A DNA stretch of 28,619 nt, from assembly GCA_965233585.1 (NCBI GenBank), contig CBDDTI010000322.1, positions 1 to 28,619 on the forward strand. The letters are read 5' to 3'. The DNA comes from a bacterium. GTDB lineage: Bacteria; SAR324; NAC60-12. This document shows positions 1,791 to 21,456 of this stretch, piece by piece (within the stretch, counting starts at the first letter, position 1; every line of letters starts with the position of its first letter). The notes under the pieces were generated by a model. That model was not told the DNA's origin. It did not search any database and saw only the letters and a program-made list of their open reading frames with translations. A program made the position numbers and the translations under genes.

Positions 1791-1818
1791 AAATGTCGCC
1801 TTATATAAAAAGTAAATT

Positions 1819-5800: not shown

Positions 5801-6724
5801 TTACAGTTTTACCTTCAAAAGGGTATGAAAATCAAACAAGTTCATCGTGGGGTGAAGTTCAAACAGAGATGTTGGTTGAAACCTTGGATAGATTTTAACA
5901 CTGAAAAAAGAAAAGTAGCGAAGAGCGACTTTGAGAAGGATATGTTCAAATTGATGAACAACGCCGTTTATGGCAAAACGATGGAGAATGTCAGAAACCA
6001 CATTGACTTTGAATTAGTATCAACGCAGGAGAGGATACAAAAATGTATCAACAATCCTAACTACAAAGGATGTCATATTATAAATGAAGAACTGGCAGGA
6101 GTGGAAAAAACAAAAACTGTATTGAAGTTGGATAAACCTATCTATTTGGGAATGTTAATTTTAGACCTTTCAAAGGTTCATATGTATTCTTTCTACTATG
6201 ATGTCTTAAAAGCAAGGTATAAGGATGATGTAAGACTGATATATACTGACACCGACAGTTATGTTATACAAACTTTCACCGAAGACATCTATGAAGATTG
6301 GAAAGGAATAAAGGATTATATGGACTTCAGCGGTTATGATAAGAACCACCCTTGCTATGATGCCACTAATAAAAAAGTCCTTGGCAAGTTCAAGGACGAG
6401 ATGGATGGAAAAATCATCACAAACTTCATTGCTTTACGTCCTAAAATGTATTGTCTAAAAGTCTTCAACGAACAGAAAGCAGAAAAGAAAGCAAAGGGTG
6501 TTCCAAAACTGAAAGTCAAAAGGGATTTAGATATGAAAGACTATGAGGCAACACTCCACGAACACATACCAAAGAATGTAAATTTCAATGCCATCAGAAG
6601 TAAGAACCACCAAATCTACAGTATAAACCAAAGCAAGGTCGGTTTAACATCTTATGACAACAAAAGGTATTGGTTCAACGATACTGACAGTCTGCCCTAT
6701 GGGCACTACTCATTATCCAATTAA
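2832..6724 (+). pseudogene. polB: Protein-primed family B DNA polymerase (pPolB), ~1300 codons, fragmented
   Basis: ExoI ADFEC, ExoII HNLKNYD, KGVYPYDY, ExoIII YLRTDV, motif A YLDANNLYG, motif B KLMNNAVYGK, motif C YTDTDS. In-frame stops at 3432 and 3768; frameshifts at ~4813, ~4845 and ~5416. Confidence 0.95.
4554..4652 (+). other. Endonuclease VII-like (His-Me finger) domain within the pPolB exonuclease region
   Basis: CFICGKDFKEGDKVRDHCHFTGKYRGCAHDDCN fits the CxxC...DHCH...RG...CN pattern. Confidence 0.85.
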
Positions 6725-6756: not shown

Positions 6757-6963
6757 TCATATCAAACTCCAGTTACAGAGTTGTAGTTTCGGTAGTTGAT
6801 ATATCAGTTTGTTTTGTTTCTCCTTTTCCAGTTTCTCCACTCTTCCCACCAACTCTTTTACGCTCTTGATGAGTAAAACATCTGTTCGGGTCTTTTCGTC
6901 TTCGTCTATCTTTTTGATTTGTTCAAGGTAGTCGTTTTCAACACTGCTGTTTGAATTGCCCAT
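6757..6963 (-). CDS. Small coiled-coil protein with N-myristoylation consensus
   Basis: Starts MGNSNSS (MGxxxS); SVKELVGRVEKLEKE is heptad-like; TCTA 16 nt upstream. Confidence 0.6.
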   Translation of the reverse strand: MGNSNSSVENDYLEQIKKIDEDEKTRTDVLLIKSVKELVGRVEKLEKEKQNKLIYQLPKLQLCNWSLI

Positions 6964-6986
6964 TGTGTATATATGATTTTAGATTT

Positions 6987-9254
6987 TTAATTCTTTGATT
7001 TGGATTTCGCCTTTGCTTTAGGCTTGACAAAATCTTTGATGAAGTTTTCAACTTCAAATAAGCGGGTTTCTAAATGCTCAACTTTGTTTTTCAAGTCTTC
7101 ATTTTCTTTGATTATTTCTCTGACTGCTCCCCAAGTGATACTTCCCATTTTAATATAACTTAATTTCTTAATACCATCAACTTCAACAAGTATATTTTCA
7201 ACTTTTTCTGGTATATTTTCTTCTACCTCCTCTGCTATAAAACCTATATGACTTTTAGTTATTCCCATTTCTTTTTCTTCTTTCATTTTGAAAGTATGAG
7301 GTTTAATGCTATTTACTATTTTTGTAAAATTGAAATTTGCTTCTTCAATATCATATTTCTTATCTTTTTGTGATGTATCTACAAGGTCTCCCTCTAATGT
7401 ATAAGGTGCTGGAACAGAAACTTTTGATGGTGTAATAAAAAGTCTTATACTGCTATTAGCATAAAATCTTATGTCCCCGTTAGGGTCTTCATTGATTAAC
7501 TTGAAATGATTAACACCTGCGGTATTTTCATTAACTATATAACTATTCTTGCTTGTTTCTTTATGAAAATATGCCTTTTTGTCTTGATTGACATATACGT
7601 CTTTTGAAAAATTAACATCTTCAGTTGCTTTTCTGTATCTCATATATTCTACTAAACCGTCATCTGTTGTATTACTACCTTGAAAAACCATATCAGCACC
7701 ATAATTTCTATTGTAAAAATAATCTCCATAAATATATTGAGATGACAACGCCCTACCTGTTGAAACATTAATAATACTGTTAGCACCATCTAATGTAAAG
7801 AAATTTACACCACCTCTTTTAAAGACTACATCGGTAGGTGTGGCACTATCAATTACATCAAATTTAGCACTTTCAGCAAGTAATGATAAACCCGTATTTA
7901 CTTCTACATTACCGTTTCTAAAATACATAAAGTCTATTGTGTTCCTTCTAAATTTAACATCAGCATTACCTATACTATCATAAGTGTTTGCTTTAGCACC
8001 TTTTGTTAGTTCCACTGCTTGTAGCGTTCCTTCAAACTTCATATATGCAACATCGCCTCTTTTGAAGACTAAATCAACATCAGTAGCGTTTTTTGTATTG
8101 ATGACATCGGTTTGTAATTCAGTATGGCACACGACATCAACATTAAAATATGCCTGTGTTAATGACAATTGAAATTTTAAGTGTTGAGGAAACGGACGAC
8201 CACCAACATAAAACCGATGTACTCCACCAGAAGCAAAAATACAATAATCATAATCAGGATTACCACTTCCTATATTGATAGAACGGATATAACCTTTACC
8301 AGTTCCTAAAACAATTGAACCTCCTAATGGAAATTCTATGGTTGAATTATAATAAGCAGAACCATTAACCGTTAAGTCAAAACTTCCAAATTGAACACCG
8401 CCACATAAAACTAAATCGCCTTCTATTGTTTGTAATGTTTCACCTGTATATTTTACTAAATTAGTGTCATCAACACCACCACCTCCAATAGCGGGTGATG
8501 TTGTTTTATGAAATGTGATTAAATCATTTGCTAATGTCATAACTAAATTAGAAGCAGTAGCGGGGTCGCCTACATAAAAGTCAATTTGACCTGTCTGTTC
8601 TTTCATTACAAAATTCAAAAAGTTTCCAGCGTTTAAAGTTTCATTTATATAACTGTCGGTATGTTGAAAAAGTAATTTACTATTCAATGGTATATCTAAA
8701 CTTGATGCTAATGCCAATGGTTTTCCTAAAACTAAACCACCGTTAGTATCGTAATCATAATCATATTCCAAATAAATAGCATTGTTATGTTTAAACAATA
8801 TGTTAGACAGACTGTTTTTACTATCAAAGTCATTGCTCTTCAAAACGCCTGTTATTTCGGGATTGCTGACATTCAATTTATTGTTTAATAAACCATCGGT
8901 TTCAGTCTGTGTATAGTAAGGGGTAAATAAACCGTCGGTTTCAACTCTTGTATAGTAAGGGGTGAATAAACCATCGGTTTCAACTTTTGTATAGTAAGGG
9001 GTGAATAAACCATCGGTCTCAACTTTTGTGTAATAACTTGTGAATAAACCATCAACTTCACCACTATCATAATAAGGGGTGAAAAGATTGTTTGTTTCCG
9101 CTTTTGTATAGTAATTGGTTAAATCAACACTACCACCTCCTCCACCACCACTTCCTGCGATGTCAAGGATGTTCCTTAACTGTCCGTTATTTGGGTCTAT
9201 TGTTCTAAACTCGTATGCCTCCACGCTCCTATTTATATTATAATAATTTGCCAT
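6987..9254 (-). CDS. Putative virion fibre with C-terminal peptidase S74-like intramolecular chaperone (755 aa)
   Basis: Gly linkers, 13-aa tandem repeats and a beta-rich repetitive middle. C-terminus has SQKDKKYDI...HIGFIAEEVEE...LSY followed by a coiled coil. Open frame. Confidence 0.75.
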   Translation of the reverse strand: MANYYNINRSVEAYEFRTIDPNNGQLRNILDIAGSGGGGGGSVDLTNYYTKAETNNLFTPYYDSGEVDGLFTSYYTKVETDGLFTPYYTKVETDGLFTPYYTRVETDGLFTPYYTQTETDGLLNNKLNVSNPEITGVLKSNDFDSKNSLSNILFKHNNAIYLEYDYDYDTNGGLVLGKPLALASSLDIPLNSKLLFQHTDSYINETLNAGNFLNFVMKEQTGQIDFYVGDPATASNLVMTLANDLITFHKTTSPAIGGGGVDDTNLVKYTGETLQTIEGDLVLCGGVQFGSFDLTVNGSAYYNSTIEFPLGGSIVLGTGKGYIRSINIGSGNPDYDYCIFASGGVHRFYVGGRPFPQHLKFQLSLTQAYFNVDVVCHTELQTDVINTKNATDVDLVFKRGDVAYMKFEGTLQAVELTKGAKANTYDSIGNADVKFRRNTIDFMYFRNGNVEVNTGLSLLAESAKFDVIDSATPTDVVFKRGGVNFFTLDGANSIINVSTGRALSSQYIYGDYFYNRNYGADMVFQGSNTTDDGLVEYMRYRKATEDVNFSKDVYVNQDKKAYFHKETSKNSYIVNENTAGVNHFKLINEDPNGDIRFYANSSIRLFITPSKVSVPAPYTLEGDLVDTSQKDKKYDIEEANFNFTKIVNSIKPHTFKMKEEKEMGITKSHIGFIAEEVEENIPEKVENILVEVDGIKKLSYIKMGSITWGAVREIIKENEDLKNKVEHLETRLFEVENFIKDFVKPKAKAKSKSKN
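8880..9113 (-). repeat. Six 39-bp coding tandem repeats (YYTKVETDGLFTP-like)
   Basis: Visible in both DNA and translation. Confidence 0.9.
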
Positions 9255-9286
9255 ATATTATTAGATGATAAAATAATTTTGTAGCA

Positions 9287-10035
9287 TCATTCCACTTGAA
9301 TTCTTTGATTGAGGTTTTTGTAAAACATTTTCTTCTTGTCGCTTTCCATCAAATCTATGTATAAAAAACCGTGCCTGTCATTCGTGGCAACTCGGTATAT
9401 CTTGTCTAAAGTTTTCTTGTCATACAACCCGCTCAATTCTTCCAAAATGGCATCTAAATCTTTTTGATTACGAAGCCTGAAGATGAAAAGTTGGGTGGCA
9501 TTCTTCCTAACGACTGGCGATATTTGTGTGTAGGATTGTGATGTGATAAAAGTTGAGATATACCAATGCCTACCTTTGGTGAAGAGTTTGATTAACTCCT
9601 TGTTCTTCCTGACAACCTTTTCGTTGTCAGCCCAGTCGTCTATGATGATACAGATGTTGTATAGGTGTTTGTAATCCTTCTCCTTCATATACTTTATTAT
9701 TCCTTCCTGCGTGTCTATCACGTTCTTCAAGTCCTTCTCCTCAAAGGTGTCAAAGTAAATGGGGTCTTCATCCGTGTGTTTGATGTCCATTTCTTTGTCA
9801 ATGTATTTTTTCACAACCGTCCAGTTGTCATCAATGAAGATGGTTGGCGAAAAAATGTAGATTTTCTCAAAGCAACCCTTGTAGATGTCCAACACCAAGT
9901 TTGTCAAAGCAACCGTTTTACCCGTTCCCGACGGAGCGTTCAGTAAAATCCTTGCTGGAAGACAAACCATATACCCGTAGGATGACTGCTTACAATTATA
10001 TATTCTTTATGTTTGTAAGGCTTTATATTTATCAT
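9287..10035 (-). pseudogene. A32-like (FtsK/HerA superfamily) genome-packaging ATPase with 5' frameshift
   Basis: Walker A APSGTGKT, Walker B IIIDD, KGRH, TSQ. Likely ATG at 10035 (TCTA 12 nt upstream) gives MINIKPYKHKEY; an extra AT near 9997-10003 shifts it off NCKQSSYGYMVCLP. Confidence 0.88.
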
Positions 10036-10352
10036 ATTAAAAGTATTTAGAAATAAATTTCTGATATAAAATATTCAAAAGGAAACCTTTTTTACCTTGA
10101 AAGGGCGTCGGGTGAAAATGGGACAGTTGCTTTTCAGTCCGCATAAGACGTTAATTAGTTTTGAACTCTGCGTCCCTTTGACTGACAAAACGAAGCAATA
10201 GAAGATGAATTCGTTTGTGCTTTGCTTTTGATTACACCCCGACATTTTCGTTCTACCCACCCCAGTAGAAATCTTCGTGTCGCAAAAGAAAAGTCCTGTA
10301 TAGTATAATTAGAATGTATGTTGATGATATTTTCTAATTACATATAATCAGG

Positions 10353-10493
10353 ATGAACGAGTATGAAACCTACATTGATACAATAGGTGAGATTGAAAAT
10401 AGGATTGTTGATGACACGAAGTATCCAGTCATCACCGACAACAGGGTGAAAAGATGTTGTAAGCACACATTGGAACTAATTAAAATTGTTTAA
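10353..10493 (+). CDS. 46-aa ORF not in the ORF track (MNEYETYIDTIGEIENRIVDDTKYPVITDNRVKRCCKHTLELIKIV)
   Basis: ATG 16 nt after an AT-flanked TCTA (10333-10336); fills the gap before the next gene. Confidence 0.5.
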   Translation: MNEYETYIDTIGEIENRIVDDTKYPVITDNRVKRCCKHTLELIKIV

Positions 10494-10515
10494 AATTTTC
10501 TCAAATATAAAATAG

Positions 10516-10947
10516 ATGCCGAAAAAGAAAACTAACACAATCAAAAAACAACCAATCCCCGAGGATTTTGAACTTTCAGATGAAGAACCCGCTGTTGTCA
10601 ATCTGAACGAGGAACAAAAACTGTCAAGTAAATTCATTACCTTTGATTGTCCCATTTGTAGGGGTAAATTACAATTGAGAAACGAAATTCTTATCAACCC
10701 GAAGGGCATAAAGTGTTCTTGTAATCCTTGCTCCTTCAAAATTACCAAAAACGACAAAACGATGAATGTAAGTAGAGATGACAACGGGGATATAAAGTTG
10801 GACAGCGAAGACCACAGTATCTCGTTCAGTTGGAACAGACAAATCACACCCGAAGATAAGAAAGTAGAGAGCACGAAAAAGATGATAAGCGATGTAATGA
10901 GCACTCCAAGAAGTAGCGGTAGAAAGTCAATGAATGATATGGATTAA
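10516..10947 (+). CDS. Hypothetical zinc-ribbon protein
   Basis: CPIC...CSCNPC; basic N-terminus; TCTC variant upstream. Confidence 0.65.
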   Translation: MPKKKTNTIKKQPIPEDFELSDEEPAVVNLNEEQKLSSKFITFDCPICRGKLQLRNEILINPKGIKCSCNPCSFKITKNDKTMNVSRDDNGDIKLDSEDHSISFSWNRQITPEDKKVESTKKMISDVMSTPRSSGRKSMNDMD

Positions 10948-11063
10948 AAAGTTTCTCACAAAATGGTGAAAAGAGTAGATTTTGCGTGAAAGCAAATTGA
11001 TAAATAAATATCTAAATAAATATATATCTAAATAAATAATTATATATATAAATATATAATAGT

Positions 11064-11426
11064 ATGGTGGATGTTGAGAGCGATGACCCCGTAAAGCAAT
11101 CAGAACTGGAAGAACTGAAGAACAAGGTGAGCAAAATGAATAAGAACCTCATAACCATAATGAACACTGTTAAGAACATAGAATATAACCTGAACAACAA
11201 GAAGGAAGAGAACAAAGAAAATACCAACGACAAAGACAAAGAAAGAATAAACAAAGCCTTTGAAAAGAAGCAGATAGGCAGACCCGTCGGTTCGTGGGAA
11301 GATAAAAGGAAACAATACTTTGAGTGGATTACATCGGGTAAAATCACACAACCCAAAGAAGAAACTTTAGCATACTACCAAATCAATAAAGACCCGTCAA
11401 ACAACTCCTATGTGTTGCTGTCATAG
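11064..11426 (+). CDS. Hypothetical coiled-coil protein with GRP (AT-hook-like) motif
   Basis: N-terminal heptads; KKQIGRPVGS; two TCTA (11011, 11027) in the AT-rich leader. Confidence 0.65.
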   Translation: MVDVESDDPVKQSELEELKNKVSKMNKNLITIMNTVKNIEYNLNNKKEENKENTNDKDKERINKAFEKKQIGRPVGSWEDKRKQYFEWITSGKITQPKEETLAYYQINKDPSNNSYVLLS

Positions 11427-11456
11427 TTTCATATTTTAAATATATAGTTTTATAAT

Positions 11457-12089
11457 ATGAAATTACTTGAACTGTTTTCTGGAACGGGAAGTGTAGGCAA
11501 AGTCGCCAAAGAGTTAGGTTATGATGTTGTCTCGTTGGACTTGAAGGATGCCAACATCAACACTGACATACTCAATTGGGATTACAAACAATTCAACAGA
11601 AACAATTTTCAAATCATTGGGGCTTCTCCCCCTTGTGTTGAATATAGCATTGCCAAAACCACTGGTGTTAGAAAAATAGATTATGCCAACAGCATCGTTC
11701 AAGAGACCATTGAAATAATCACATACTTCAATCCATCAGTATGGTTCATAGAAAACCCACAGACTGGATTGTTGAAACATCAGGACTTTATGAAAGACTT
11801 TGATTACTTTGACATTGATTATTGTAAATACGGCTTTCCATACAGAAAAAGGACAAGGATATGGACGAACCTAACCAGTTGGAAACCAAGACCATTATGT
11901 AAAAAAGATTGTGGAAACATCATTAACAATAAACATAAAGAAACAGCCCAACGGATGCCATCAGGCAAAAAGAGCGACTGGGGTAATGATTACATAATAC
12001 ATCGTCAAGATGAATTATATAGAATACCCAGTGAGTTAATCAATGAAATTTTTACATCAATCGTCCTCAATGAAGGTCAGGGAGAATGA
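11457..12089 (+). CDS. C5-cytosine DNA methyltransferase (compact viral type)
   Basis: Motif I LELFSGTGS, catalytic SPPC, IENP, RKRTR. Open frame. Confidence 0.9.
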   Translation: MKLLELFSGTGSVGKVAKELGYDVVSLDLKDANINTDILNWDYKQFNRNNFQIIGASPPCVEYSIAKTTGVRKIDYANSIVQETIEIITYFNPSVWFIENPQTGLLKHQDFMKDFDYFDIDYCKYGFPYRKRTRIWTNLTSWKPRPLCKKDCGNIINNKHKETAQRMPSGKKSDWGNDYIIHRQDELYRIPSELINEIFTSIVLNEGQGE

Positions 12090-12884
12090 ACAATTCACAT
12101 TGTTCAAATCAACAACATTACCATAACTATTGACCAATTTGAAGTGTAGTGTTCTCAACACTCTATTTGAAACATTGATGTAATCAACACTGATGATTTC
12201 ATTGTCATAGATGACTGAACCGAAGGGGGCATTAATCGGGATTTTCTTAACGATGTTGTAAGCACCCGTAGAACCTAATTGTTTAGCGTCGCTCAATTCA
12301 CTACAAGTAAGGTATAAATTTCTCAACGCTAATAATGTCAAATACCCGCTTTTCCAATCTGGATAGTTCAACGATGAGGTGTAGTTTCCTAAAACCTGAT
12401 TGATGGATTTTAAGTTATTTCTGTCATAAGATGTTCCCGTCCATTGGATGGTGTTATACTCCATCTCATAGTCGGTCATTATCTTGAACGAAAAATCCAC
12501 ATAGTTTAAAGTGATGGTTATTTTGTTGGTGTCATAGTCGTAAGATACACTGAAATAATCGTTGTTTGCTTGAAACCCGTTTGTTGCTTCGTTCATCTTT
12601 GTTTGAAGGTTTGATGCCAATGTAGCACCTACATAGGAAGCACTCAACAGTTCAATTATAACATCCGTAGTGTTTGAAAAATCCGTCAGTCTTAAGTAAA
12701 GGTTGCTGTTCAACCCCGCTTAGACTGGATAAATGGAATTCGGTATGGTGATTTCGTGGATGTAGAGTTTGGTGTCGTTCCCGCATTCTTGACTTTCGGG
12801 TAAATAGATTTCAAAATCACTGCTACTGTTACAGTTCTGGGTTCGGTGGTGGCTGTCTATGTATATCTTTTTAAATCTACTCAT
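12057..12884 (-). pseudogene. Minor capsid (penton) protein with one in-frame stop
   Basis: ATG 12884 gives MSRFKKIYIDSHHRT...SDFEIYLP...IPNSIYPV, then TAA (12720-12722), then in-frame AGLNSNL. C-terminus LHFKLVNSYGNVVDLNNVNCSFSLTF. Both ends match the PLV/NCLDV penton pattern. Confidence 0.8.
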
Positions 12885-12936
12885 TTATTATGATATAATA
12901 ACTTTAGAAATTATATTTTTCTATACATTATTATAT

Positions 12937-13638
12937 ATGCTTCAAAAAAGGTTGATGGATGATATGAAAACACAGGGACGACTACAAAGAATAAACCCCT
13001 TTGAAGAGATTGACGGTAAAGAATACAACAAAAAACACAACAACAAACAAAAGGAATTGTTGGAGAAATTCAGTAAGGAGATACAACGGGGAAACAAATA
13101 CTTGGAGGAGTTCAGCAACATCAACGACGAGACCGGACTAAAGAGGGCATACAATAACAGAACAAATTTAGGACTATACCACCACCCAGAGAATAAAACG
13201 CTTTACATAGCGGGGACGAAAGATTTTCCGCGAGACATTTTGGACGACACACTCATTCCTTTTCATATGGTTCATAGGTCAAAGCGGTATAAGACCGCAA
13301 ACGACTTCATCAGAAACAACATTGATAATGTTGATACAATTGTCAGTCATTCCTTGGGTTCAGCAACAACGATGAAACTGAACCAAGACTATAACAAAAG
13401 ATTTACCACCAGAACCTATGGAACACCAACCGTAAGTTTTAATGACAACACTGACAGTAAGAACACGAGGTTCAGGGCAGTAGGCGACCCAGTCAGTATG
13501 TTTGACAGAGGCGTGGATATAACAGTCAATAAGAACAGTTATAATCCTTTATACAATCACGGCTTTCACGCCGTCCATTTTGGAGATATGGGAAAGTCAG
13601 AAAAGAATGTGGCAGAACCAATCAACAAGATAATGTGA
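12937..13638 (+). CDS. Class-3 lipase-like alpha/beta hydrolase
   Basis: LYIAGT, nucleophile elbow SHSLG, TYGTP, GDPVS, late His. Start reassigned to 12937 (TCTA 13 nt upstream). Confidence 0.85.
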   Translation: MLQKRLMDDMKTQGRLQRINPFEEIDGKEYNKKHNNKQKELLEKFSKEIQRGNKYLEEFSNINDETGLKRAYNNRTNLGLYHHPENKTLYIAGTKDFPRDILDDTLIPFHMVHRSKRYKTANDFIRNNIDNVDTIVSHSLGSATTMKLNQDYNKRFTTRTYGTPTVSFNDNTDSKNTRFRAVGDPVSMFDRGVDITVNKNSYNPLYNHGFHAVHFGDMGKSEKNVAEPINKIM

Positions 13639-13663
13639 TTTTACTTTATATAAGTCATATTAT

Positions 13664-13894
13664 ATGGAAGACATCGTAAGGGAATATTTGAAGAACAACA
13701 GACAGGAAATGAAGAAGTTGAAGAACGAGAATACCAAAAAGAAAAAACATCTAACATACAATGAAATCAAGAAGGTCATAGAGAGCGGAAAAGATATAAA
13801 GAACAACGAAAATCAACCTATAGAAAACAAACCCCAAAACAAAGGGAAGAAAACCAAAAATACATTTAAAAAATATATCTTCGACATAACTTAA
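13664..13894 (+). CDS. Small Lys/Asn-rich hypothetical protein
   Basis: Fills the lipase-MCP gap; AT-rich TATATG start context. Confidence 0.55.
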   Translation: MEDIVREYLKNNRQEMKKLKNENTKKKKHLTYNEIKKVIESGKDIKNNENQPIENKPQNKGKKTKNTFKKYIFDIT

Positions 13895-13944
13895 TTTAAT
13901 ATAACCTAATCATCAAAAATTTTCTGTATAGAATATATACAAGT

Positions 13945-15345
13945 ATGGAAGCATTAGAAATTACAGATGTTCTCAATGAAAATGTCCTTCGGTATAGACT
14001 AAAAGGTGGAGCGTCCTACATTAGAGACAAACGTATCAAAACATTCTACCCTTCTTCGGTCTCTACTTACTCATCCAACTCAAACAGTGTCATCCGTTTT
14101 AATCTAACTGGTGGAGCAAATGAATGGATAAATCTGCGAAGTCTTTTGATAGGTTTTACCCTCATCAATGCCGACAATGACGGAACAAAAGAGTTGAGAC
14201 CTGCCTATAAACCATCCTCATTTTTTCAAAGAATGCGAGTGATGGCGGGTTCAAATGTTATTGCTGAAATTCCTGACTTAAACCGTTATGAAGCAATGAT
14301 GGATATTTTACAAGATGACGGTTCAAGAAACTATACTGACAATTTAGGTTTTGGTGAGACCTTCTATAATGAAGGAAATAGATTTTTGACATATACGCAG
14401 TTGGCAACGAACCCAGGTTCAAACACAGTCCAGAATGTCATTGACCAAGCGAAACCTGACAATTTCGGAGGGTTTAAAAACAAAAAGACCGTTTATTACC
14501 GACCTTCTTGTCCCTTCTTCAATGTATCAAACTTCATTCCTTTATCATACTGTCCGATTGTCATTGAACTAACTTTGGTCAGTGATGCTAATGAACCCCT
14601 CATTAATTTAAGTGGTGATTTTACCACAACGAATACTTCGTTCTTATGGAACATAGAGCAACCCATCATCACCTGTGATATTCACCGACTTGATGATGGT
14701 TTATTTGCGGAGTATGCTGAAATTTTGGAAAAGCAATCTTTACCTATAACCTTCAACAGTGTTTCCGTCCAAACCCAAACAACAAGTAGAAGCGCCGACA
14801 TCTTCACGACAATAGTTAGAAATGTCAGTAAAGCAGACAACATATTCATATCTTTCTATTCAAATTTGGGTTATAAGGGCGGTTTCCAAGAAGTGTTGAA
14901 ACCTCATAACCTTCTTTATCATCCCCTTTCGTGGGAAAGCGGAACATCAATTGCTCAAAGATACTATGAAAATATTGATTTATCCTTTCAGTTAAGTATT
15001 GGTAATACTGTCATACCCGAAATGCCAACGATGGGGGTTGCTGACAACTACAAGCATCTTCAAGAAACACGAAACAATCACGTTTCAATCAAACCTCATA
15101 TGTATAGGACGAATTCCTTTTTAGCGGGGTTCAACCTCAAGAAACTCAACAGTGCCAATTACACTGGACTGAATTTGAAGAACAATTCAAATATGGTTGT
15201 CCGTGTTAAGCCATTGTATGGAACAGACCTATATACAACAGACAACGGGACTGATACTGGACTGATGCCTGACAACATGTATATCGTTATTGAACACGAA
15301 TGTATCTTGGAGATAAAAGCCCAATCTGTCATTTTCTATGACTAA
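13945..15345 (+). CDS. Putative double-jelly-roll major capsid protein (466 aa)
   Basis: Size, beta-rich composition, PLV-MCP-like N-terminus (FYPS...IRFNL...WINLRSLLIGFTL, FFQRMRV, IPLSYCPIVIELTL), and context with penton and ATPase. Open frame. Confidence 0.8.
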   Translation: MEALEITDVLNENVLRYRLKGGASYIRDKRIKTFYPSSVSTYSSNSNSVIRFNLTGGANEWINLRSLLIGFTLINADNDGTKELRPAYKPSSFFQRMRVMAGSNVIAEIPDLNRYEAMMDILQDDGSRNYTDNLGFGETFYNEGNRFLTYTQLATNPGSNTVQNVIDQAKPDNFGGFKNKKTVYYRPSCPFFNVSNFIPLSYCPIVIELTLVSDANEPLINLSGDFTTTNTSFLWNIEQPIITCDIHRLDDGLFAEYAEILEKQSLPITFNSVSVQTQTTSRSADIFTTIVRNVSKADNIFISFYSNLGYKGGFQEVLKPHNLLYHPLSWESGTSIAQRYYENIDLSFQLSIGNTVIPEMPTMGVADNYKHLQETRNNHVSIKPHMYRTNSFLAGFNLKKLNSANYTGLNLKNNSNMVVRVKPLYGTDLYTTDNGTDTGLMPDNMYIVIEHECILEIKAQSVIFYD

Positions 15346-15357
15346 AAATGATAGTGG

Positions 15358-15396
15358 ATAATTAATAAAATTATAATGAATAATCTTATTAATTAT
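15358..15396. terminator. AT-rich hairpin between convergent MCP and 431-aa gene
   Basis: ATAATTAATAAAATTAT-aatga-ATAATCTTATTAATTAT: 17-bp stem with one mismatch. Confidence 0.65.
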
Positions 15397-16688
15397 TTTG
15401 ATTTTAATTTTGGATAGATGATTGACTTGTAAAGTTCCTTCGCTTCCTTTAGATGCTGTTTCTTATCCTCTCCCTTGCTTGATTTCCATTTACCATATAC
15501 CTCTTGAAACCTTTGATAGTCTCCTGTGTCTATGCTTTTGCTGTTGTTCATCTCTTCAAACTTCTCTCTTATCACTTGTATTCCTACCTTGCTTGGCGAT
15601 ATTGCTTTGTTCATTGTTGGTTTCCTGACTGGTGCTTTTGATGAAGATGACGCCCCTGTTTCTTCCTGTGCTGTCTCTGCTTCATCTACATTGGGTGTCT
15701 TGTTGTCTTTGGGGATGTTGATTGTTGCTCCTAATGCTTGTGGTTGGGGTTGCTTTCCTCTTACTCTTCTTGCTTTGGGTGGTTTGGTGGTTGTGGATGG
15801 GTCTTCATGAAATTCTCTCTTCTCCTGCGTTGGCGGTTTTGGTTTCTGCCTCTTTGCTTTGGACTGTCTCACGCTTAAGGGCTTCCTTTTTTCTGCTGTT
15901 GGTATTGCTGTTGTATCCGTTGGTTCGTTGACATCGGGCACTACATCCACGTTCATCTTTGATTTTTCCTCCTTTAACTTCTTTTGGTGATTTACCTTTT
16001 TGACTTGTTTGTTGATTAGTTTTTGTGTTGGTTTTATCTTGGACGGTTTCTCTTCCTCGTCTTCGTCGGGTATGATGGCGTCTGTCAGTTTTGATGCTAT
16101 TAGTCCTCCTATTGACCCTCCCTTTGCTGTTCCTCCTGCTGTGGCGACTGCTTTGATGACTGGTTTGGATGATTTAAGGAATTTCTTTAAGATGCTTCTA
16201 CTGCTTGAAGGCGGTTCTTCGTCTTCTTGTATCCCTGCCGATGCCGTTGCTCCAACGGCGTCGTATGCCCCTTTGTTTGCCATATAGTGGTCTTGTGAAT
16301 GACTTAAGTTTGCTTGTTCTGCTACTCTCCTTTCGTTCTCTTCCCTCAACTCTGCCTCTCTGTCAAAGGACATTTCGAAGTCGCTGATGGCGTCGTCCCT
16401 CAAGTCTGTCATACCTTCAAAGTCAAGGTTGGGTGTTTCTTCTTCCTTCCTTGCGGTCGCTTCCTCTGCCATCTGTTTGAAGTTCATTTGCTGTAAGTCT
16501 GCTGGGTGGATGTTGTTTGTGTTCAGTGCTTGACCCTGCGGACTTTCGTGAAAATACCAAGCGTTCCTATCAAAGATTTTTCTGATGTCATTGGTTTTGA
16601 ACTTTTCCCTGTCTATTTCCTTGATGAGTTCTGCGTAAGTGGGTATTCGTGTCAATCCCTGTTTTGCGTTGATTACTTCTGCTGTCAT
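15393..16688 (-). CDS. Hypothetical 431-aa low-complexity protein, possible virion core/membrane-active protein
   Basis: Acidic N-half, Gly/Ala hydrophobic segment (VIKAVATAGGTAKGGSIGGLIASKL), Lys/Arg/Pro-rich C-half. Function is inference. Confidence 0.7.
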   Translation of the reverse strand: MTAEVINAKQGLTRIPTYAELIKEIDREKFKTNDIRKIFDRNAWYFHESPQGQALNTNNIHPADLQQMNFKQMAEEATARKEEETPNLDFEGMTDLRDDAISDFEMSFDREAELREENERRVAEQANLSHSQDHYMANKGAYDAVGATASAGIQEDEEPPSSSRSILKKFLKSSKPVIKAVATAGGTAKGGSIGGLIASKLTDAIIPDEDEEEKPSKIKPTQKLINKQVKKVNHQKKLKEEKSKMNVDVVPDVNEPTDTTAIPTAEKRKPLSVRQSKAKRQKPKPPTQEKREFHEDPSTTTKPPKARRVRGKQPQPQALGATINIPKDNKTPNVDEAETAQEETGASSSSKAPVRKPTMNKAISPSKVGIQVIREKFEEMNNSKSIDTGDYQRFQEVYGKWKSSKGEDKKQHLKEAKELYKSIIYPKLKSK

Positions 16689-16718
16689 TGCTATATATTA
16701 ATAGTTGAGATTTTTATA

Positions 16719-17168
16719 TTAATCTTGTGTATCGCCTCTCAACCACTGTTTATACTCATCAATTCTCTGTTTCATATTCTGGACGTTCGCCCCGTAATCT
16801 TCCAATCTGTGATTTTTCCTCACCTCCCTCAACCTTGTCATTTCGTTCTGTAGCATCTCATTCTCTTCCTTCATCCTCTGCTTTACTTGTAAGACTTTGT
16901 AATCGTGCTCGGTGTTGTGATATTCAAGAAGGCGCTTTAGGTAAAGATGATGGTTGTGAGTTGGCATCCTTGCCGTGTTGCTGTCGTTGTGGTAGTAGTG
17001 GTCATAACTACTATACACTTTTTTTCTTCTGTCTGGCATTTCGGGCGTTCCGCTCCGGTAGTTGGCACTTTTGTTTGAATGGACGGTTTGTCTTCTGTTG
17101 ATGTCCTTGCGGACGTTTTCGTAGATGCCTGTTTTGTTGAGTTCTATTTTCTGTTCCTTGATGTTCAT
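16719..17168 (-). CDS. Hypothetical basic coiled-coil protein
   Basis: Open ORF in a co-oriented run; AT-rich leader. Confidence 0.65.
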   Translation of the reverse strand: MNIKEQKIELNKTGIYENVRKDINRRQTVHSNKSANYRSGTPEMPDRRKKVYSSYDHYYHNDSNTARMPTHNHHLYLKRLLEYHNTEHDYKVLQVKQRMKEENEMLQNEMTRLREVRKNHRLEDYGANVQNMKQRIDEYKQWLRGDTQD

Positions 17169-17184
17169 TTTTATATATAATACT

Positions 17185-17529
17185 TTACAAACTTTTTGAT
17201 GCTAAAGATTTCAAGTTCTCTCTCGTCGCTTTGTTCTTTTCCTCTTTGGCTTTGTTGTAGGTGTCTCTGGCGGACATCGCACTTTGTAGTTCTTCCTTTA
17301 TTTGTTTTACAAGGTCGCTTTTGAATGCTTCTGGGTCAAAAGGTGGTTTCGCCCTTGACGGTCTTACCCTTTTGGGCTTTGGGGCTGGTTGCGGTTTCTC
17401 TTCAACGGATGGTTCAATTATTTCTTCTGGTTTCTCCTCTTCTTTCGGTGCTTCTTCCTGTGTTGGCTCTGGTATTGTTTCTTCCTTGGGTTCTTCATTA
17501 TCAATCTCTTTTACGACTACCTCTGTCAT
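17185..17529 (-). CDS. Hypothetical Glu/Pro-rich then basic protein
   Basis: Open ORF; TCTA 12 nt upstream. Confidence 0.7.
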   Translation of the reverse strand: MTEVVVKEIDNEEPKEETIPEPTQEEAPKEEEKPEEIIEPSVEEKPQPAPKPKRVRPSRAKPPFDPEAFKSDLVKQIKEELQSAMSARDTYNKAKEEKNKATRENLKSLASKSL

Positions 17530-17552
17530 ATATTAATATTATAGATAATTTT

Positions 17553-18493
17553 TTATACTTTCAAAATCTCGTGCCTCAAATACGGTTTGTTCAATCCTTC
17601 CAGTTTGAAGGTTCTGTTTCCGACATCATCGTATTCTATCTTGACGATTTTGTAGGATTGATTGCTCCACTTTGAGTTATACTCCTTCCTCTCGGTGTAG
17701 TTGTCTTTTTTCTTCTCAAAGACCTTGACCATATCATTCACTTTGACCTCTGGATATTTGCGAGTGTTCTTTTCCCTCCTTGTCAAATTTACCCTGACGT
17801 CCATATGGTTTTTGTCGTCGTGGGCATCCTTGGGTTTCATTTTGGTGGATGAATGGACGGTGTCGTTGTATTTATCTAACGCTTTGGACAACATCACAGT
17901 CCAACTGCCCCGATTAAACCTGACCCTGTCGTGTATCATATTTTTCATTGTCCTTATGAAACGTTCCACAACATTAGCGTGTGTTAGGGTGACGACGTGA
18001 GTGATGCCTTCTTTCTCAAAAAAATCTTTTACACCCGCTTGGAAGGCACGGTCATTATCGCTATAAACGGACATCGGAAAACCCATTTTGTTGAAACTAT
18101 CTTTCATCGCCGATAATGTGATTGGTCCGGATTTTCTTTCATAGGGACGACGTTTGCCAACTTGCTGAAGATGTCAATGACCACCAACCCATATCTCGGT
18201 TCGTCGTTCTTGATGGGAATTTTTGTCTCTGGTTCTTTAGTTAGGGGTTTCATATCCATTATGTCAATTTGATGCTCAAACCTTGCGAATGGTGCGGTGT
18301 AGGAGTTTGAACCCCTGTATTTTCTAATCTGTTTGTTGGGCTGTTTCCTCATAAAGTTTTCCACATCCACCCTGTTGATGGTCTGGTCTTGTTCCTTGGC
18401 TTTCTTGAGGGTCTCATTGATTGAACCGAAGCCCGTTTCAAGATTGTAATAGACATTGCTTATGATGTCATCTCTTGATAGTCTCCTTGCCAT
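17553..18493 (-). pseudogene. Retroviral-type (rve, DDE) integrase split by a 1-nt deletion
   Basis: QIDIMDM (D), VIDIFSK, YSDN (D), ANVVERFIRTMK (E), YNDTVHSST. Adding one base to the run at 18132-18135 restores MKEKSGPITLSAMKDSF. Confidence 0.92.
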
Positions 18494-18539
18494 ATATTAT
18501 AATATTAGATTTTAAAATTATCAGCAATAAAAAAATATA

Positions 18540-18571
18540 CTTAAAGAAAAAACACCTATATATAGTAAGAG
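18540..18571 (+). promoter_or_regulatory. Conserved upstream motif CTTAAAGAAAAAAnnnCTATATATARTAAGAG
   Basis: Near-identical copies at 18540, 19027 and 21457; weaker copies at 1552, 1784, 2789 and 2698 (minus). All lie 33-46 nt before an ATG. Confidence 0.75.
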
Positions 18572-18579
18572 TAAATAAG

Positions 18580-19008
18580 ATGACTAAATTTGACTGTGGA
18601 TGTCGTATTATGAGTGAGTGTATCACCTTAAACAATGGTGATTACAAAAAACCTAGTTGGAATTATTTGTTAAAAACCTTCGTGAATGTTTGTGGAAAGT
18701 GTGGCAAGAAACAAATGAAATTCCAACAGATGGAAAACAAACTTCTGGAAATGGAAAAGCAACGAATGGAAATGTTTTTGGAAAATGAGGATGAAGAACA
18801 CGACACATACTTTGACCTGACAGAGTTGAAGGAACATCTCCAAACCCTCCCACCCAACGAAAGACACAAAGTGAAGGATTTTGAGAGGTTAAGAAACCTT
18901 GCCAATGGACAAGACCCCAACGAAGGAATGAGTGAAATAGATATGGTTATAAAGGAACTGGAAGAGGAGGAAAGGGAAAATAAAAACCAACCCGAACCCG
19001 AAAACTGA
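18580..19008 (+). CDS. Hypothetical protein with CxC...CxxC and acidic C-terminus
   Basis: Start reassigned to ATG 18580, after the conserved motif; MTKFDCGC...CGKC. Confidence 0.7.
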   Translation: MTKFDCGCRIMSECITLNNGDYKKPSWNYLLKTFVNVCGKCGKKQMKFQQMENKLLEMEKQRMEMFLENEDEEHDTYFDLTELKEHLQTLPPNERHKVKDFERLRNLANGQDPNEGMSEIDMVIKELEEEERENKNQPEPEN

Positions 19009-19026: not shown

Positions 19027-19058
19027 CTTAAAGAAAAAATATCTATATATAGTAAGAG
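19027..19058 (+). promoter_or_regulatory. Second copy of the CTTAAAGAAA motif
   Basis: CTTAAAGAAAAAATATCTATATATAGTAAGAG immediately before ATG 19060. Confidence 0.75.
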
Positions 19059-19670
19059 GATGCTATTTACTTATAAAAACTGTGGATGTTGTAAGAAAGA
19101 AATGACTAACCTAAAGGTTTTATTGAACAATATTTTTCCCGCTGGAATTTGTGATGAGATATGTCATTACAACCTTCACTGTGAAAAATGTAAAGACTTA
19201 AACGATAGGGAGCGTAGATACATAGATTTCAATTATCATTTTGACTATTTTAATGATAAAAAACTGACAAGAGTTGAAAAGATAATCTATTTCTTTAAAA
19301 CAAGGATGGAGAAATCACCTATTTATTTATCCAACACGAACCGAACAAACACTCGGCAAATGAAAAGAGAAATTTATGTTTTAATGGATACATTCAAACT
19401 CAAGCAAGAATTCAAACACGACAAACTGTTCTTAATGGCGATTAAGTCTTTTGTGAAAAGGGAGTGGAAAACTACCTATCACTTCCTTAAAAACTTTCAC
19501 GACCTTACATATATGAAGTATTGTAAGAACAAACGGGAGTGTTGGTTTCCTCAAAACGATTGGACTTATACATTCAGAAATAGGGAGTTTAAGGTAAAAG
19601 ACATTTTGGAAAGGAGGGCTGATTATTTTAGGATTTTTTTTTGATCAGGTTTAGGAATTATTTTTGGATT

Positions 19671-20030
19671 CCTGCTTCTCTGCTTTTCCTGCTTTTCCTG
19701 CTTCTCTGCTTTCCTGCTTTTCCTGCTTTTCCTGCTTCTCCTGCTTTTCCTGCTTCTCTGCTTTTTTGCTTCTCCTGCTTCTCTGCTTCTCTGCTTTTCT
19801 GCTTTTTTGCTTTTCTGCTTCTCCTGCTTCTCTGCTTCTCTGCTTTTCTGCTTTTTTGCTTTTCTGTTTTTCCTGTTTCTTTGCTTCTCTGCTTTTCCTG
19901 CTTTTCCTGCTTCTCTGCTTTTCTGCTTTTCCTGCTTCTTTGCCTTTCTGCTGTTTTGCTTTTGTGCGTTTCCTGTTTCTTTGCTTCTCTGCTTTTTTGC
20001 TTCTCTGCTTTTTTTTGCTTTGCCTGCTTT
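19671..20030. repeat. Degenerate (CTGCTTTT/CTGCTTCT)n pyrimidine-rich repeat
   Basis: Directly visible; source of spurious ORFs. Confidence 0.95.
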
Positions 20031-20280
20031 AAATACTTGATTTTCATGTAAGATGCATTTTGCACAGTATTTACATCCCTGAGTATCACATGACCAACCT
20101 TCTCTTGAAAACTAGCAACGTAACATGTGAGAAGAGGTGCTTGCATTCTGCTTTGGGGGGAGGCGCTGCGCCCTCCCCCAATCCCCCCCTCCCGCTTTTT
20201 TTAATTTAAACTTAAACCCAAGTTACATTAGTTGGTTTTTGCGAACTAACCTTCTCTGGAAAGCTGACAGGATTACATGT

Positions 20281-20922
<642 letters not shown>

Positions 20923-20991
20923 GCGCCCTCCCTCAATCCCCCCCACCCGCTTTTTATCTAATCCCAAGCTTCCGCATCTGTAAATATTTGG

Positions 20992-21240
20992 GTGAACATG
21001 CTCACATGTAGAACATCCCATGCAAAATGGAAGGTGAACATGCCAAAATGTGGCAAATACCATACAAAATGGAAGGTGAACATGCCCACATGTAGGAAAT
21101 CCCATGCAAAATGGAAGGTGAACATGCCAAAATTTGGCAAATACCATACAAAATGGAAGGTGAACATGCCCACATGTAGTAAATCCCATGCAAAATGGAA
21201 GGTGAACATGCCCAAATGTGGCAAATACCATGCAAAATGA
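20992..21240. repeat. 42-bp minisatellite, ~6 copies, alternating A/B variants
   Basis: Unit CATRCAAAATGGAAGGTGAACATGCC... Confidence 0.92.
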
Positions 21241-21456
21241 CAAATTCAAGTTCCAAACCGTTGCAAACACTAGGCAAATGGTACCAGCCAAGGAATCCAA
21301 AAAAAATTCCCAAACCTGCTCAAAAAAAAATCCTAAAACTATTTCACACCCTTTTGGAAATATTTTTGCGTGAATACACTGAAGAACTTTTCAATGGTTA
21401 TGAAAAATATTTTAATGTAGAAGAAATAAAAGAGTATCTACAAAAAGTGGTAAATA

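Follow-up and report, generated by a model that had tools for sequence, protein, structure and literature searches.

The genes of the small virus-like element in this locus are spaced 20-60 nt apart, each with a short putative promoter, and the question is what kind of promoter this is and which transcription apparatus would read it. The window, by which we mean the whole stretch of 28,619 nt that was analysed, holds an integrated polinton-like virus (PLV), and the contig carrying it is eukaryote-like. The original prediction was that an AT-flanked TCTA lies 7-20 nt upstream of most central genes, as in the late promoter of CroV and mavirus.

The element and its genes

The element encodes a double jelly-roll major capsid protein (MCP), a single jelly-roll penton and an A32/FtsK-type packaging ATPase, the combination that marks polinton-like viruses (Polintoviricetes), together with a fibre, an integrase and a protein-primed polymerase, the last two names being tentative. 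The predicted MCP model (pLDDT 75.7) had PBCV-1 Vp54 as its best solved fold (E 1.8e-16), with the Sputnik and mavirus MCPs lower in the ranking, and the first methionine was invariant across 17 MCPs. The penton, modelled from the uninterrupted homologue L007 (pLDDT 78.2), matched the mavirus penton 6g42 (E 6.8e-9). The packaging ATPase matched Pox_A32 (E 4.2e-11), and the fibre had a C-terminal Peptidase_S74 domain and phage tail-fibre matches. Classification of the element as a virophage (Maveriviricetes) was rejected, since its capsid is PLV-type and Pfam gave no Sputnik_MCP match in the element.

The putative polymerase ORFs gave no match in Pfam, NCBIfam or PDB sequence searches; their Atlas neighbours (score 0.96-0.97) had PF03175 in 14-37% of their members. 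The gene at 2832-6724, which has several interrupted frames, we take to be pPolB (protein-primed DNA polymerase), partly from polymerase motifs. The integrase ORFs of the window had no Pfam match, and a family B homologue matched rve (E 1.1e-6, under the curated cut-off) and IS481 transposase (2.8e-11). The integrase frame is broken near 18104-18107 and reads through on the sister contigs C581 and C657. For the lipase-like gene 12937-13638 there was no Pfam match and an NCBIfam lipase match at only E 0.005. The family is highly multi-copy, with MCP clusters of up to 412 members, found on contigs of up to 1.8 Mb.

TCTA upstream of the central genes

Exact TCTA was found 7-20 nt before 8 of the 15 central starts. 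Three further genes had TCTC or TCTG in its place (11/15 in total), and for two of them sister copies read TCTA. All eight predicted spacings proved correct, and the predicted variants, TCTC before the ORFs starting at 10516 and 16688 and TCTG before the MCP gene, were found at the TCTA position. The sites are as follows.

6980-6983, minus strand: TCTA 16 nt upstream of the small-ORF ATG (ORF 6757-6963), TATATA at 6968-6973; kept on C581, C657 and C155
9262-9265, minus strand: TCTA 7 nt upstream of the fibre-gene ATG (gene 6987-9254)
10048-10051, minus strand: TCTA 12 nt before the upstream ATPase start at 10035; frame interrupted before 9970
10333-10336, plus strand: TCTA 16 nt upstream of a conserved ORF of 46 aa that begins at 10353
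10499-10502, plus strand: TCTC 13 nt before ORF 10516-10947; TCTC in all three family A copies
12905-12908, minus strand: TCTA 20 nt upstream of 12884, where the penton gene begins (12057-12884, with a broken frame)
12920-12923, plus strand: TCTA 13 nt before the lipase-like gene 12937-13638
13923-13926, plus strand: TCTG 18 nt before the MCP gene 13945-15345, TATATA at 13934-13939
16707-16710, minus strand: TCTC 18 nt before ORF 15393-16688, TATATA at 16692-16697; TCTA there on C657
17542-17545, minus strand: TCTA 12 nt before ORF 17185-17529
18506-18509, minus strand: TCTA 12 nt upstream of the integrase gene 17553-18493; families B and C have one here too

The motif had also been predicted before the reconstructed starts of the broken ATPase and penton genes. 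For the ATPase, C657 supports the start with an unbroken ORF of 248 aa that has TCTA 14 nt upstream; for the penton, uninterrupted homologues support it. The MCP site reads TCTA on C581, C657 and C155 and in most metagenome relatives, and homologues of the 46-aa ORF have TCTA on C657 and C155 (7/7 distinct upstream regions). A nearby TCTA was missing at 4/15 central starts, those of the MTase gene, ORF13664, ORF17168 and ORF11064 (where the nearest copies are 33 and 49 nt away), and also at the fibre gene on C657. The penton and lipase-like genes diverge from a region with one oriented TCTA for each of them. In the convergent gap 15346-15392 there is no TCTA motif. On both strands of 1800-22000 there were 31 W3-TCTA-W2 sites, 8 of them correctly oriented and at most 20 nt from a start.

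These frequencies were compared with several controls. TCTA stood at 7-20 nt from 23 of 431 non-start ATGs (5.3%) and in 145 of 1352 30-nt windows with at least 80% A+T elsewhere in the element (10.7%), while its reverse complement TAGA was found in 1 of the 15 upstream windows. With an element-wide rate of 0.0053 per position and strand the binomial P was 2.9e-6, and among the 12 permutations of its letters TCTA was the commonest (8, runner-up 5). When all 22 element starts were considered, enrichment over composition-matched sequence was confirmed, as the observed 9 was matched in 1/2000 mononucleotide shuffles (mean 2.9). The upstream windows are 87% A+T. Significance was weaker in controls that are conservative or circular, being built from the windows tested: dinucleotide shuffles of the same 30-nt windows reached 8 in 8/5000 for the 7-20 nt zone and in 259/5000 for TCTA anywhere in 30 nt, and an order-1 model trained on the same windows gave P = 0.023.

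Conservation in sister contigs and metagenomes

As anticipated, the motif was conserved in sister elements. On C155, which represents a second family in the same assembly, TCTA preceded 10/22 genes in a test set beforehand, and 0/2000 shuffles matched this. The capsids of the C155 family and the window are 26-30% identical, and the MCP start codon has TCTA 18-20 nt upstream in both clade A and clade B (MCPs likewise 26-30% identical), in flanks that cannot be aligned. The integrase gene has TCTA upstream in three families, and 22 aligned sites from three families had an invariant TCTA with flanks nearly all A/T from -10 to +11.

Among AT-rich upstream windows from metagenomes, TCTA was found in 44/77 for clade A (TAGA 9) and 48/87 for clade B (TAGA 15), compared with 21/106 for other PLVs (TAGA 27). 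After de-duplication the clade A and B relatives had TCTA in 84/154 such windows, mostly at 10-20 nt, and it was their most enriched 4-mer (z 14.7; other PLVs 21/91; Fisher 9.5e-7). No enrichment was seen in 72 unrelated viral loci (122/1171 vs 126 for the control). In the eukaryote-like contigs of the assembly, where host starts were crudely called, W4-TCTA-W2 preceded an ORF in 138/3944 cases, the same share as TAGA (143/4042). The TCTA motif is restricted to these lineages and is not general in the assembly: its matches cluster on C155, C657, C581 and C322, and many other pPolB elements there have neither TCTA nor the second motif described below.

Two putative promoter classes

A TATATA box lies between TCTA and the ATG. 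The earlier reading had missed this box, which occurs in both of the classes described here, and also that TCTA is one of two. In class I the AT-flanked TCTA stands 6-10 nt before TATATA, corresponding to 7-20 nt before the ATG. Class II consists of CTTAAAG-N10-TATATA, and there is almost no cross-use between the classes. The class II cassettes of the window are as follows.

1784-1807, plus strand: CTTAAAG, 10-nt spacer and TATATA-like box before the zinc-finger ORF 1819-2148 (zf-C2H2)
2789-2808, plus strand: cassette before the pPolB gene 2832-6724; CTTAAAA here, CTTAAAG in two sister copies
18540-18564, plus strand: cassette before ORF 18580-19008; repeat D15
19027-19051, plus strand: cassette before ORF 19060-19644, holding a TCTA at 19042-19045
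21457-21481, plus strand: cassette before ORF 21492-21956

The two motif classes are split by gene function, and a role as promoters is what we infer for both. Class I precedes the capsid, penton, ATPase, fibre, lipase-like, integrase and methylase genes and several small genes, and class II the replication genes (polymerase/helicase), GIY-YIG endonucleases and terminal accessory genes. Counted over distinct upstream regions, TCTA was present for MCP in 26/61, penton 21/33, ATPase 9/14, fibre 8/13 and integrase 12/19, and for small ORF families in 6/7 and 7/7; among these families class II was found only at the integrase (2/19). The class II motif was present for pPolB in 4/4, helicase 4/5, GIY-YIG 15/22 and o1819 6/9, and for the terminal genes o18580 in 4/5, o19060 in 5/5 and o21492 in 4/4, with 0-1 TCTA in each class II family. 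In every lineage examined class II precedes replication genes, even though these are non-homologous (pPolB, SF1 helicase, D5-type primase-helicases, Prim-Pol).

In both classes the TATATA box lies 3-17 nt before the ATG. The TATA box of Pol II lies some 30 nt ahead of the start site. With a conserved first methionine this close, the TATATA box is therefore not of the Pol II kind.

Comparison with virophages and giant viruses

The cited parts of PMC5294985 and PMC8547959 give AT-flanked TCTA both for the late motif of CroV and for the promoter of mavirus and EMALE04, and part of PMC13196603 gives it for the ChlorV late motif. Sections of PMC8547959 and PMC10945749 report that virophage promoters match the late promoters of their own giant virus and that a response to CroV is confined to EMALEs carrying its late motif. 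The element resembles CroV, ChlorV, mavirus and the type 4 EMALEs of Cafeteria in having TCTA in AT-rich flanks right upstream of coding sequences, including structural genes (parts of PMC5294985, PMC8547959, PMC13196603, PMC10945749). It differs from mavirus and EMALE04 in its PLV-type capsid, nearest to Vp54, and from the CroV/mavirus system in that TCTA is found on about half to three quarters of its genes, with a second class for replication genes. The early motif that partners TCTA in CroV and ChlorV, AAAAATTGA, is absent from the element, and the mimivirid early motif AAAATTGA gave 3 matches against 5.65 expected, 0 of them before genes. As AAAATTGA is not enriched, the element does not have both halves of the CroV/ChlorV promoter pair. 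A CroV-like virus is neither known for it nor was one found.

The same layout was found in true virophages. In 36 virophage loci drawn from IMG/VR by capsid homology alone, unseeded by motif, TCTA preceded 166/531 ORFs (TAGA 46), mostly at 7-20 nt, and 15 of the 36 loci, which have Sputnik-type MCPs, had it before at least 30% of their ORFs. In this sample a TA repeat lay downstream of TCTA in 58/82 cases. In seven small viral contigs, chosen after their motif counts were seen, TCTA preceded 46/108 ORFs (TAGA 3) and TTAAAG 22/108 (reverse complement 1). The virophage contigs L275, L257 and L229 have Sputnik MCP and/or V18/19 domains (Sputnik_MCP on L275, E 2.7e-101). Across the 36 loci class II was not coupled to TCTA (Spearman -0.01). 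The giant-virus-like IMG/VR contigs in the sample were not TCTA-rich, and class II showed no enrichment in such contigs beyond the match used for seeding, with 13/108 windows against 8 for the reversed control, in 7 loci each fetched for one match. The predicted likeness to the CroV/mavirus late promoter thus extends to Sputnik-type virophages and is stronger than the first reading could know, whereas equating the two in function is something we infer, for an element that is not a virophage by its capsid.

Possible readers of the motifs

We consider it probable, at roughly 0.6, that class I is a virophage-type late promoter read by the transcription apparatus of a giant virus. Class I would then belong with the TCTA late motif known from CroV, ChlorV, mavirus and EMALE04, and a co-infecting giant virus would supply the late transcription factors and RNA polymerase that recognise it. 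Transcription would start in or near TATATA, giving a leader of a few nucleotides, and class II would be an earlier, replication-phase class. By analogy with the known systems, the TCTA layout suggests a giant-virus partner that has not been seen. The divergent pairs with one oriented motif each and the empty convergent gap were also counted for this reading. Against it were counted the lack of enrichment of AAAATTGA, the uncoupling of class II from TCTA in virophages, its lack of enrichment beyond the seeding match in giant-virus-like contigs, the choice of the seven small viral contigs after their counts were seen, and the failure to find the giant-virus capsid (PF04451) or VLTF3 (PF04947) in the assembly, where the bin is incomplete and PF04451 matched in no control genome either.

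A possible, though rather unlikely, alternative is that these are compact promoters read by nuclear Pol II of the host or by factors of the element itself, for example zinc-finger proteins, with TCTA initiator-like or a factor-binding site. The element would be a self-sufficient PLV or transposon, like the PLVs that replicate without a giant virus (part of PMC10945749). The giant-virus genes not found in the assembly, the high copy number of the family and the C2H2 and Cys-rich proteins among the class II genes, which are possible regulators, agree with this. RNA-library runs holding the window sequence are labelled coral metagenome, and contigs assembled from RNA libraries span all 30 bins of the element, which DNA carry-over would explain equally well. 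The host may be a coral or a coral associate, and we know of no precedent for a giant-virus helper of a coral-animal host. Polintovirus hallmark genes are reported to be expressed in one stony coral, and in the expression of coral polintoviruses the structural genes group separately from those for polymerase, ATPase and integrase (PMC11131425, in passages that do not mention a giant virus); these passages and the coral-metagenome label were likewise set against a giant-virus reader. However, reading by the host fits poorly with the short distance from TATATA to conserved starts, with the lack of a link between TCTA and the crudely called ORF starts of the eukaryote-like contigs, with the other pPolB elements of the assembly that have neither motif, and with the same layout in bona fide virophages, which according to the literature depend on giant-virus transcription.

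TCTA could also be a conserved cis-element other than a promoter. It might act in the 5' leader or in translation, mark the 3' end or termination of the preceding gene, or bind the integrase or packaging proteins. The tight packing, which makes the 3' end of each gene run into the sequence upstream of its neighbour, would allow this. Such a role is nevertheless improbable, as the motif points the same way as the downstream gene and stays at a constant distance from the start codon, its occurrence follows gene function, the divergent pairs (penton/lipase-like and integrase/ORF 18580) have one oriented motif per gene where no upstream gene ends, and the convergent gap has none. It is very improbable that the pattern arises from AT-rich intergenic sequence and a 4-mer chosen post hoc; the A+T content and the only moderate own-dinucleotide controls speak for it, but the C155 test, the top rank of TCTA in clades A and B, and the lack of signal in equally AT-rich other PLVs and in the 72 unrelated viral loci do not support it.

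Related elements

The endogenous polintoviruses and PLV-like regions of stony corals (the cited parts of PMC11131425) are similarly high-copy and integrated, with MCP, penton, ATPase, integrase and PolB, and their expression clusters by gene function. The words 'promoter' and 'motif' do not occur in the main text of that paper. PgVV-14T (Gezel-14T), a PLV with a virophage lifestyle, has a separate promoter class before its recombinase, polymerase and homing-endonuclease genes, taken from the repertoire of its helper virus (part of bioRxiv 10.1101/2022.07.28.501842). The element is alike as a PLV with a separate replication-side class, its class II also standing before replication and GIY-YIG genes. 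PgVV-14T differs in using the mimivirid early motif AAAATTGA, and the cited part of that source reports no late motif for PgVV, whereas the element has CTTAAAG-N10-TATATA as its replication motif together with the late-type TCTA.

Gene content of the element

The window is the entire 28.6-kb contig C322 of a mixed bin, in which five bacterial-looking contigs with an ORF cover of 79-88% total ~2.9 Mb and ~9 Mb of low-coding, repeat-rich contigs look eukaryotic. The virus-like element in the window spans positions ~1800-22000 and carries the genes listed below. The names 'polymerase' and 'lipase' are only partly supported.

Genes and ORFs of the element (window positions; minus strand marked)
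2832-6724: polymerase gene, interrupted
6757-6963, minus strand: small ORF
6987-9254, minus strand: fibre gene, Peptidase_S74 at its end
9287-10035, minus strand: A32-type ATPase, interrupted
10353, 10516, 11064: small ORFs
11457-12089: C5 methylase
12057-12884, minus strand: penton gene, interrupted
12937-13638: lipase-like gene
13664: small ORF
13945-15345: major capsid protein (MCP)
15393-17529, minus strand: three ORFs
17553-18493, minus strand: integrase, interrupted
18580, 19060, 21195, 21492: ORFs

Its capsid makes the element a polinton-like virus (PLV) and not a virophage. A structure model of the MCP (pLDDT 75.7) matched PBCV-1 Vp54 (E 1.8e-16), and a penton model made from an uninterrupted relative (pLDDT 78.2) matched the mavirus and Sputnik pentons. 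No match to the MCP profile was found among PDB sequences, and a PHROGs search of the element gave matches to the fibre only.

In the polymerase gene, the middle fragment (4176-4847) matched Endonuclease_7 (PF02945, E 1.2e-5) and, by this domain match, may hold an endonuclease domain or insert. The fibre gene contains five tandem 39-nt (13-residue) repeats at 8848-9120. A microsatellite/tandem-repeat block within the element (19658-21300) is flanked by two inverted repeats, 77 nt long and 79% complementary, at 19597-19673 and 21291-21367, and the stretch 19597-21367 may be an inserted repeat element.

TCTA upstream of genes in the window

The original prediction placed an AT-flanked TCTA 7-20 nt upstream of most central genes, and all the TCTA-to-ATG spacings it listed were exact on re-measurement. 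The exact tetramer with AT flanks was found in this interval before 8 of the 15 central starts, and TCTC or TCTG variants occupied the same position upstream of three further central genes. Positional enrichment over an AT-rich background was upheld, as TCTA was contained in 10.7% of 1352 equally AT-rich windows elsewhere in the element; it stood 7-20 nt upstream of 5.3% of 431 ATGs that are not starts. With the element-wide rate the binomial P for the count was 2.9e-6. The reverse-complement control TAGA was found in one of the 15 upstream windows, and no other permutation of its letters was as common as TCTA. Eight of the 31 W3-TCTA-W2 sites in the element were oriented and at most 20 nt from a start; the zones up to 20 nt before starts make up ~1% of strand positions.

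When all 22 starts of the window were considered, the observed count of 9 was reached in 1 of 2000 mononucleotide shuffles. Dinucleotide-preserving shuffles gave a weaker result, reaching the observed count in 8/5000 or 259/5000 depending on the zone. With an order-1 model fitted to the upstream windows themselves P was 0.023; this background is circular, the motif itself accounting for 8 of their 30 C's.

Conservation in sister copies and metagenomic relatives

Sister elements in the bin keep the tetramer at orthologous genes with changed flanks. Together with the window element, the near copies on C581 and C657 form family A. C581 holds one 99.4% copy, which is full, and a second, partial copy (41210-53531, with the 3' part of the fibre, the small ORF, the polymerase gene and the two left-end ORFs), and C657 a rearranged copy with 80-93% identity. 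Family B lies on C155 and C424, its MCP being 26-30% identical, and family C, third and shorter, on C493, C315 and C606. Upstream of the MCP gene, the TCTG of the window is TCTA on C581, C657 and C155; upstream of ORF 16688, TCTC in the window and C581 is TCTA on C657. The methylase gene, without TCTA in the window, has it on C657 and C155, and the integrase gene has it in families A, B and C. No TCTA was found near the fibre gene on C657, or before ORFs 13664 and 17168 in any copy compared.

In a pre-specified test on C155, the motif was found within 30 nt upstream of 10 of 22 starts (shuffle mean 2.7, 0/2000). ORF-linked TCTA and TAGA sites numbered 11 vs 2 on C155, 8 vs 3 on C657, 7 vs 1 on C581 and 6 vs 0 on C322. 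Over the eukaryote-like contigs as a whole, TCTA was not tied to ORF starts (138/3944 vs 143/4042 for TAGA), and dozens of other pPolB elements in the bin showed no ORF-linked concentration of it (e.g. C212, 4 vs 7).

The C-terminal part of the fibre shares 72-76% protein identity between families A and B, and 84.8% DNA identity over 1465 nt (window 6987-9254 and C155 19438-21044 compared). As the fibres are far more alike than the capsids, only 26-30% identical, this comparison suggests that a host-recognition module was recently exchanged between the two families.

The MCP has 39 relatives in the database, all from ENA; their contigs reach 1.8 Mb, and their largest cluster has 412 members. 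An IMG/VR scan with the MCP alignment gave 232 pattern matches and no relatives, and 80 loci were retained when JGI/ENA metagenome contigs were scanned. The MCP tree has 61 rows, 57 metagenome loci and four from the source assembly; it omits 12 loci without a complete start, four with a frame below 300 aa and seven further loci, among them L017, L018, L015, L019 and L054. Family A (7 rows) and family B (11 rows) formed long separate branches beside 42 aquatic PLV rows. By script count TCTA precedes the MCP in 5/7 rows of family A, where the start of L007 was mis-called, and in 9/11 rows of family B, where a tenth, L078, fails the flank filter only. The motif was found before the MCP in 4/43 other rows, all four within the aquatic clade; the MCP of L038, outside that clade, is without it.

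Among ORFs with an AT-rich upstream region, TCTA was found before 44/77 in clade A (TAGA 9), 48/87 in clade B (TAGA 15) and 21/106 in other PLVs (TAGA 27). After removal of identical windows TCTA was present in 84/154 windows of clades A and B, where it was the most over-represented 4-mer (z 14.7), as compared to 21/91 in the de-duplicated other PLVs (Fisher 9.5e-7). The spacing to the ATG was 10-20 nt in 78 of the 86 windows holding TCTA within 45 nt.

A TATATA box and a second putative promoter class

Two features had been missed by the original prediction. One is a TATATA box between TCTA and ATG, so that class I reads AT-flanked TCTA, then TATATA. The box was found upstream of 12 of 22 window starts (shuffle mean 2.3, 0/2000) and, in other aquatic PLVs, before 76/106 ORFs. 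The second is class II, CTTAAAG followed after about 10 nt by TATATA, which stands before ORF 1819, the polymerase gene and ORFs 18580, 19060 and 21492. Exact CTTAAAG-N7-10-TATATA occurs three times in the window vs 0.03 expected, and when a looser class II pattern followed by an ORF was sought in the whole bin, 19 of 20 sites lay within these element families.

In all copies and relatives the two classes stand before separate gene families with hardly any cross-use. Every lineage examined has class II before its replication gene, despite these genes being non-homologous: families A and C have it before pPolB, family B before an SF1-helicase protein, and viral contigs before D5-type primase-helicases or a Prim-Pol. 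GIY-YIG endonuclease genes of family B likewise have class II. This resembles the PLV PgVV, for which a preprint describes the helper's early motif on replication and homing-endonuclease genes (bioRxiv 10.1101/2022.07.28.501842). Full-text literature searches linking the class II motif to virophages or giant-virus promoters gave nothing relevant.

Family B has three GIY-YIG genes (C155 6091-6690, 13136-13504 and 17153-17698), two of which are preceded by a class II-like motif. The other pPolB elements of the bin (e.g. C212, C328, C288, C705), with a polymerase 30-35% identical, lack both promoter motifs. In other aquatic PLVs (loci L019-L085, e.g. L026, L036, L048, L050, L074 and L081), the MCP genes retain TATATA 5-15 nt upstream of the ATG, and TCTA is replaced by distal elements such as ATTATAG or CTTTTTTCTG. 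From these upstream regions, lineage-specific distal selectors appear to be combined with a common proximal box.

Comparison with virophages

When IMG/VR was scanned for one class II pattern, at least 122 loci came up, most of them through a single chance match. Seven small AT-rich viral contigs carrying both classes were chosen after their counts were seen, and in these TCTA stood 5-25 nt upstream of 46/108 ORFs (TAGA 3; shuffle mean 9.2, maximum 21) and TTAAAG upstream of 22/108 (reverse complement 1). In the remaining 72 loci from the scan, TCTA was found at 122/1171 ORFs vs 126 for TAGA. Pfam makes three of the seven contigs virophages (L275, L257 and L229), L275 with Sputnik_MCP (E 2.7e-101), V18/19, A32 and primase-helicase; the genes of the other four are virophage- or PLV-like.

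The seeding bias was removed with a sample of 52 loci fetched solely by homology to the L275 capsid. The 36 loci with at least 8 scorable ORFs were scored, and 16 with fewer were dropped. In total TCTA preceded 166/531 ORFs vs 46 for TAGA, mostly at a spacing of 7-20 nt and with a TA repeat downstream in 58/82. Metagenomic Sputnik-type virophages commonly show the TCTA layout: in 15 of the 36 loci it stood before at least 30% of the ORFs. The motif therefore extends well beyond mavirus, all of whose genes to our knowledge carry TCTA. L355, from the same sample, has class II as well, upstream of small ORFs and of one of 745 aa. A single coupled TCTA and class II code in all virophages was rejected (Spearman -0.01 over 36 loci).

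Proposed promoter function and the giant-virus question

The TATATA box sits 3-17 nt upstream of start codons, and the first methionine of the MCP is invariant in 17 relatives. In divergent gene pairs each gene has its own oriented motif and the sole convergent gap has none, which favours promoters over terminators. We consider it probable (about 0.6) that TCTA-TATATA would be a virophage-type late promoter and CTTAAAG-N10-TATATA a replication-phase promoter, both served by the transcription apparatus of a giant virus. This reading draws on the TATATA geometry, on the oriented motifs, on the occurrence of an identical layout in true virophages, and on literature reporting that virophages and giant viruses share promoters (PMC8547959, PMC10945749, PMC5294985, PMC13196603).

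The lack of a mimivirid early motif upstream of the element genes counts against a giant virus. So do the class II counts in giant-virus-like contigs, which did not go beyond the matches used for seeding, and the coral-metagenome label of RNA libraries among the runs with the sequence. A marker search found no giant-virus genes in the bin; its PF04451 part is weak, since this family was also silent in all control genomes. Transcription of the element genes by the host polymerase is the alternative, which we regard as unlikely; it would gain plausibility if the host were the coral animal. A Pol II TATA box lies ~30 nt upstream of the transcription start site, and with TATATA taken as such a box initiation would fall inside the genes.

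Host and implications

Runs in which the sequence occurs include RNA libraries labelled coral metagenome. RNA-library contigs cover 30/30 bins of the element, intergenic parts included, and cross gene borders; the four runs are assembled contigs, so that neither transcription nor its starts are demonstrated by them. The element is flanked by copia-type retrotransposon genes only. According to one study, stony coral genomes contain hundreds to thousands of polintoviruses and some PLV-like regions, with polintovirus expression in one coral species; the words 'promoter' and 'motif' are missing from its main text (PMC11131425). We tentatively propose, as a doubtful possibility, that hundreds of PLV copies with a two-class virophage-type promoter code reside in a eukaryotic member of the coral holobiont, either the coral itself or a protist associated with it, with TCTA-TATATA for virion genes and CTTAAAG-N10-TATATA for replication and homing-endonuclease genes.

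The TCTA promoters of virophages and endogenous virophages are already known. The new points are a high-copy endogenous PLV lineage that uses them, a strict division of the genes between two classes, the class CTTAAAG-N10-TATATA itself and the common TCTA layout of metagenomic Sputnik-type virophages; some of these points may already be present in supplementary motif figures of the cited papers. Promoter matching is the main current sequence-based means of pairing virophages and PLVs with giant-virus helpers. In Cafeteria, as one report describes, a promoter match predicts which endogenous elements are reactivated by a given giant virus (PMC10945749). The clean TCTA code in a high-copy endogenous PLV lineage of coral-labelled runs would predict a giant virus with TCTA late promoters there, for which CTTAAAG-N10-TATATA would be a second, more specific search key. 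If the holobiont reading is true, this host would be infected by a giant virus yet to be discovered, which would have a late promoter like that of CroV, to which TCTA had been likened from the start, and an undescribed replication-phase promoter; the elements would act as inducible virophage-like parasites or defences. CTTAAAG, which some metagenomic virophages share, would then be a new giant-virus promoter class.

Class II was also sought in large viruses. Seven mimivirid-like loci lend it no support, with TTAAAG in 13/108 upstream windows, because each was fetched for one match and the reversed control gives 8. In L236, a 57-kb AT-rich viral contig of IMG/VR encoding a glycosyltransferase/methyltransferase and an AAA ATPase, TTAAAG was found in 6/25 upstream regions vs 2 and 1 in the controls, and from these counts L236 is possibly a large virus that uses the class II motif.
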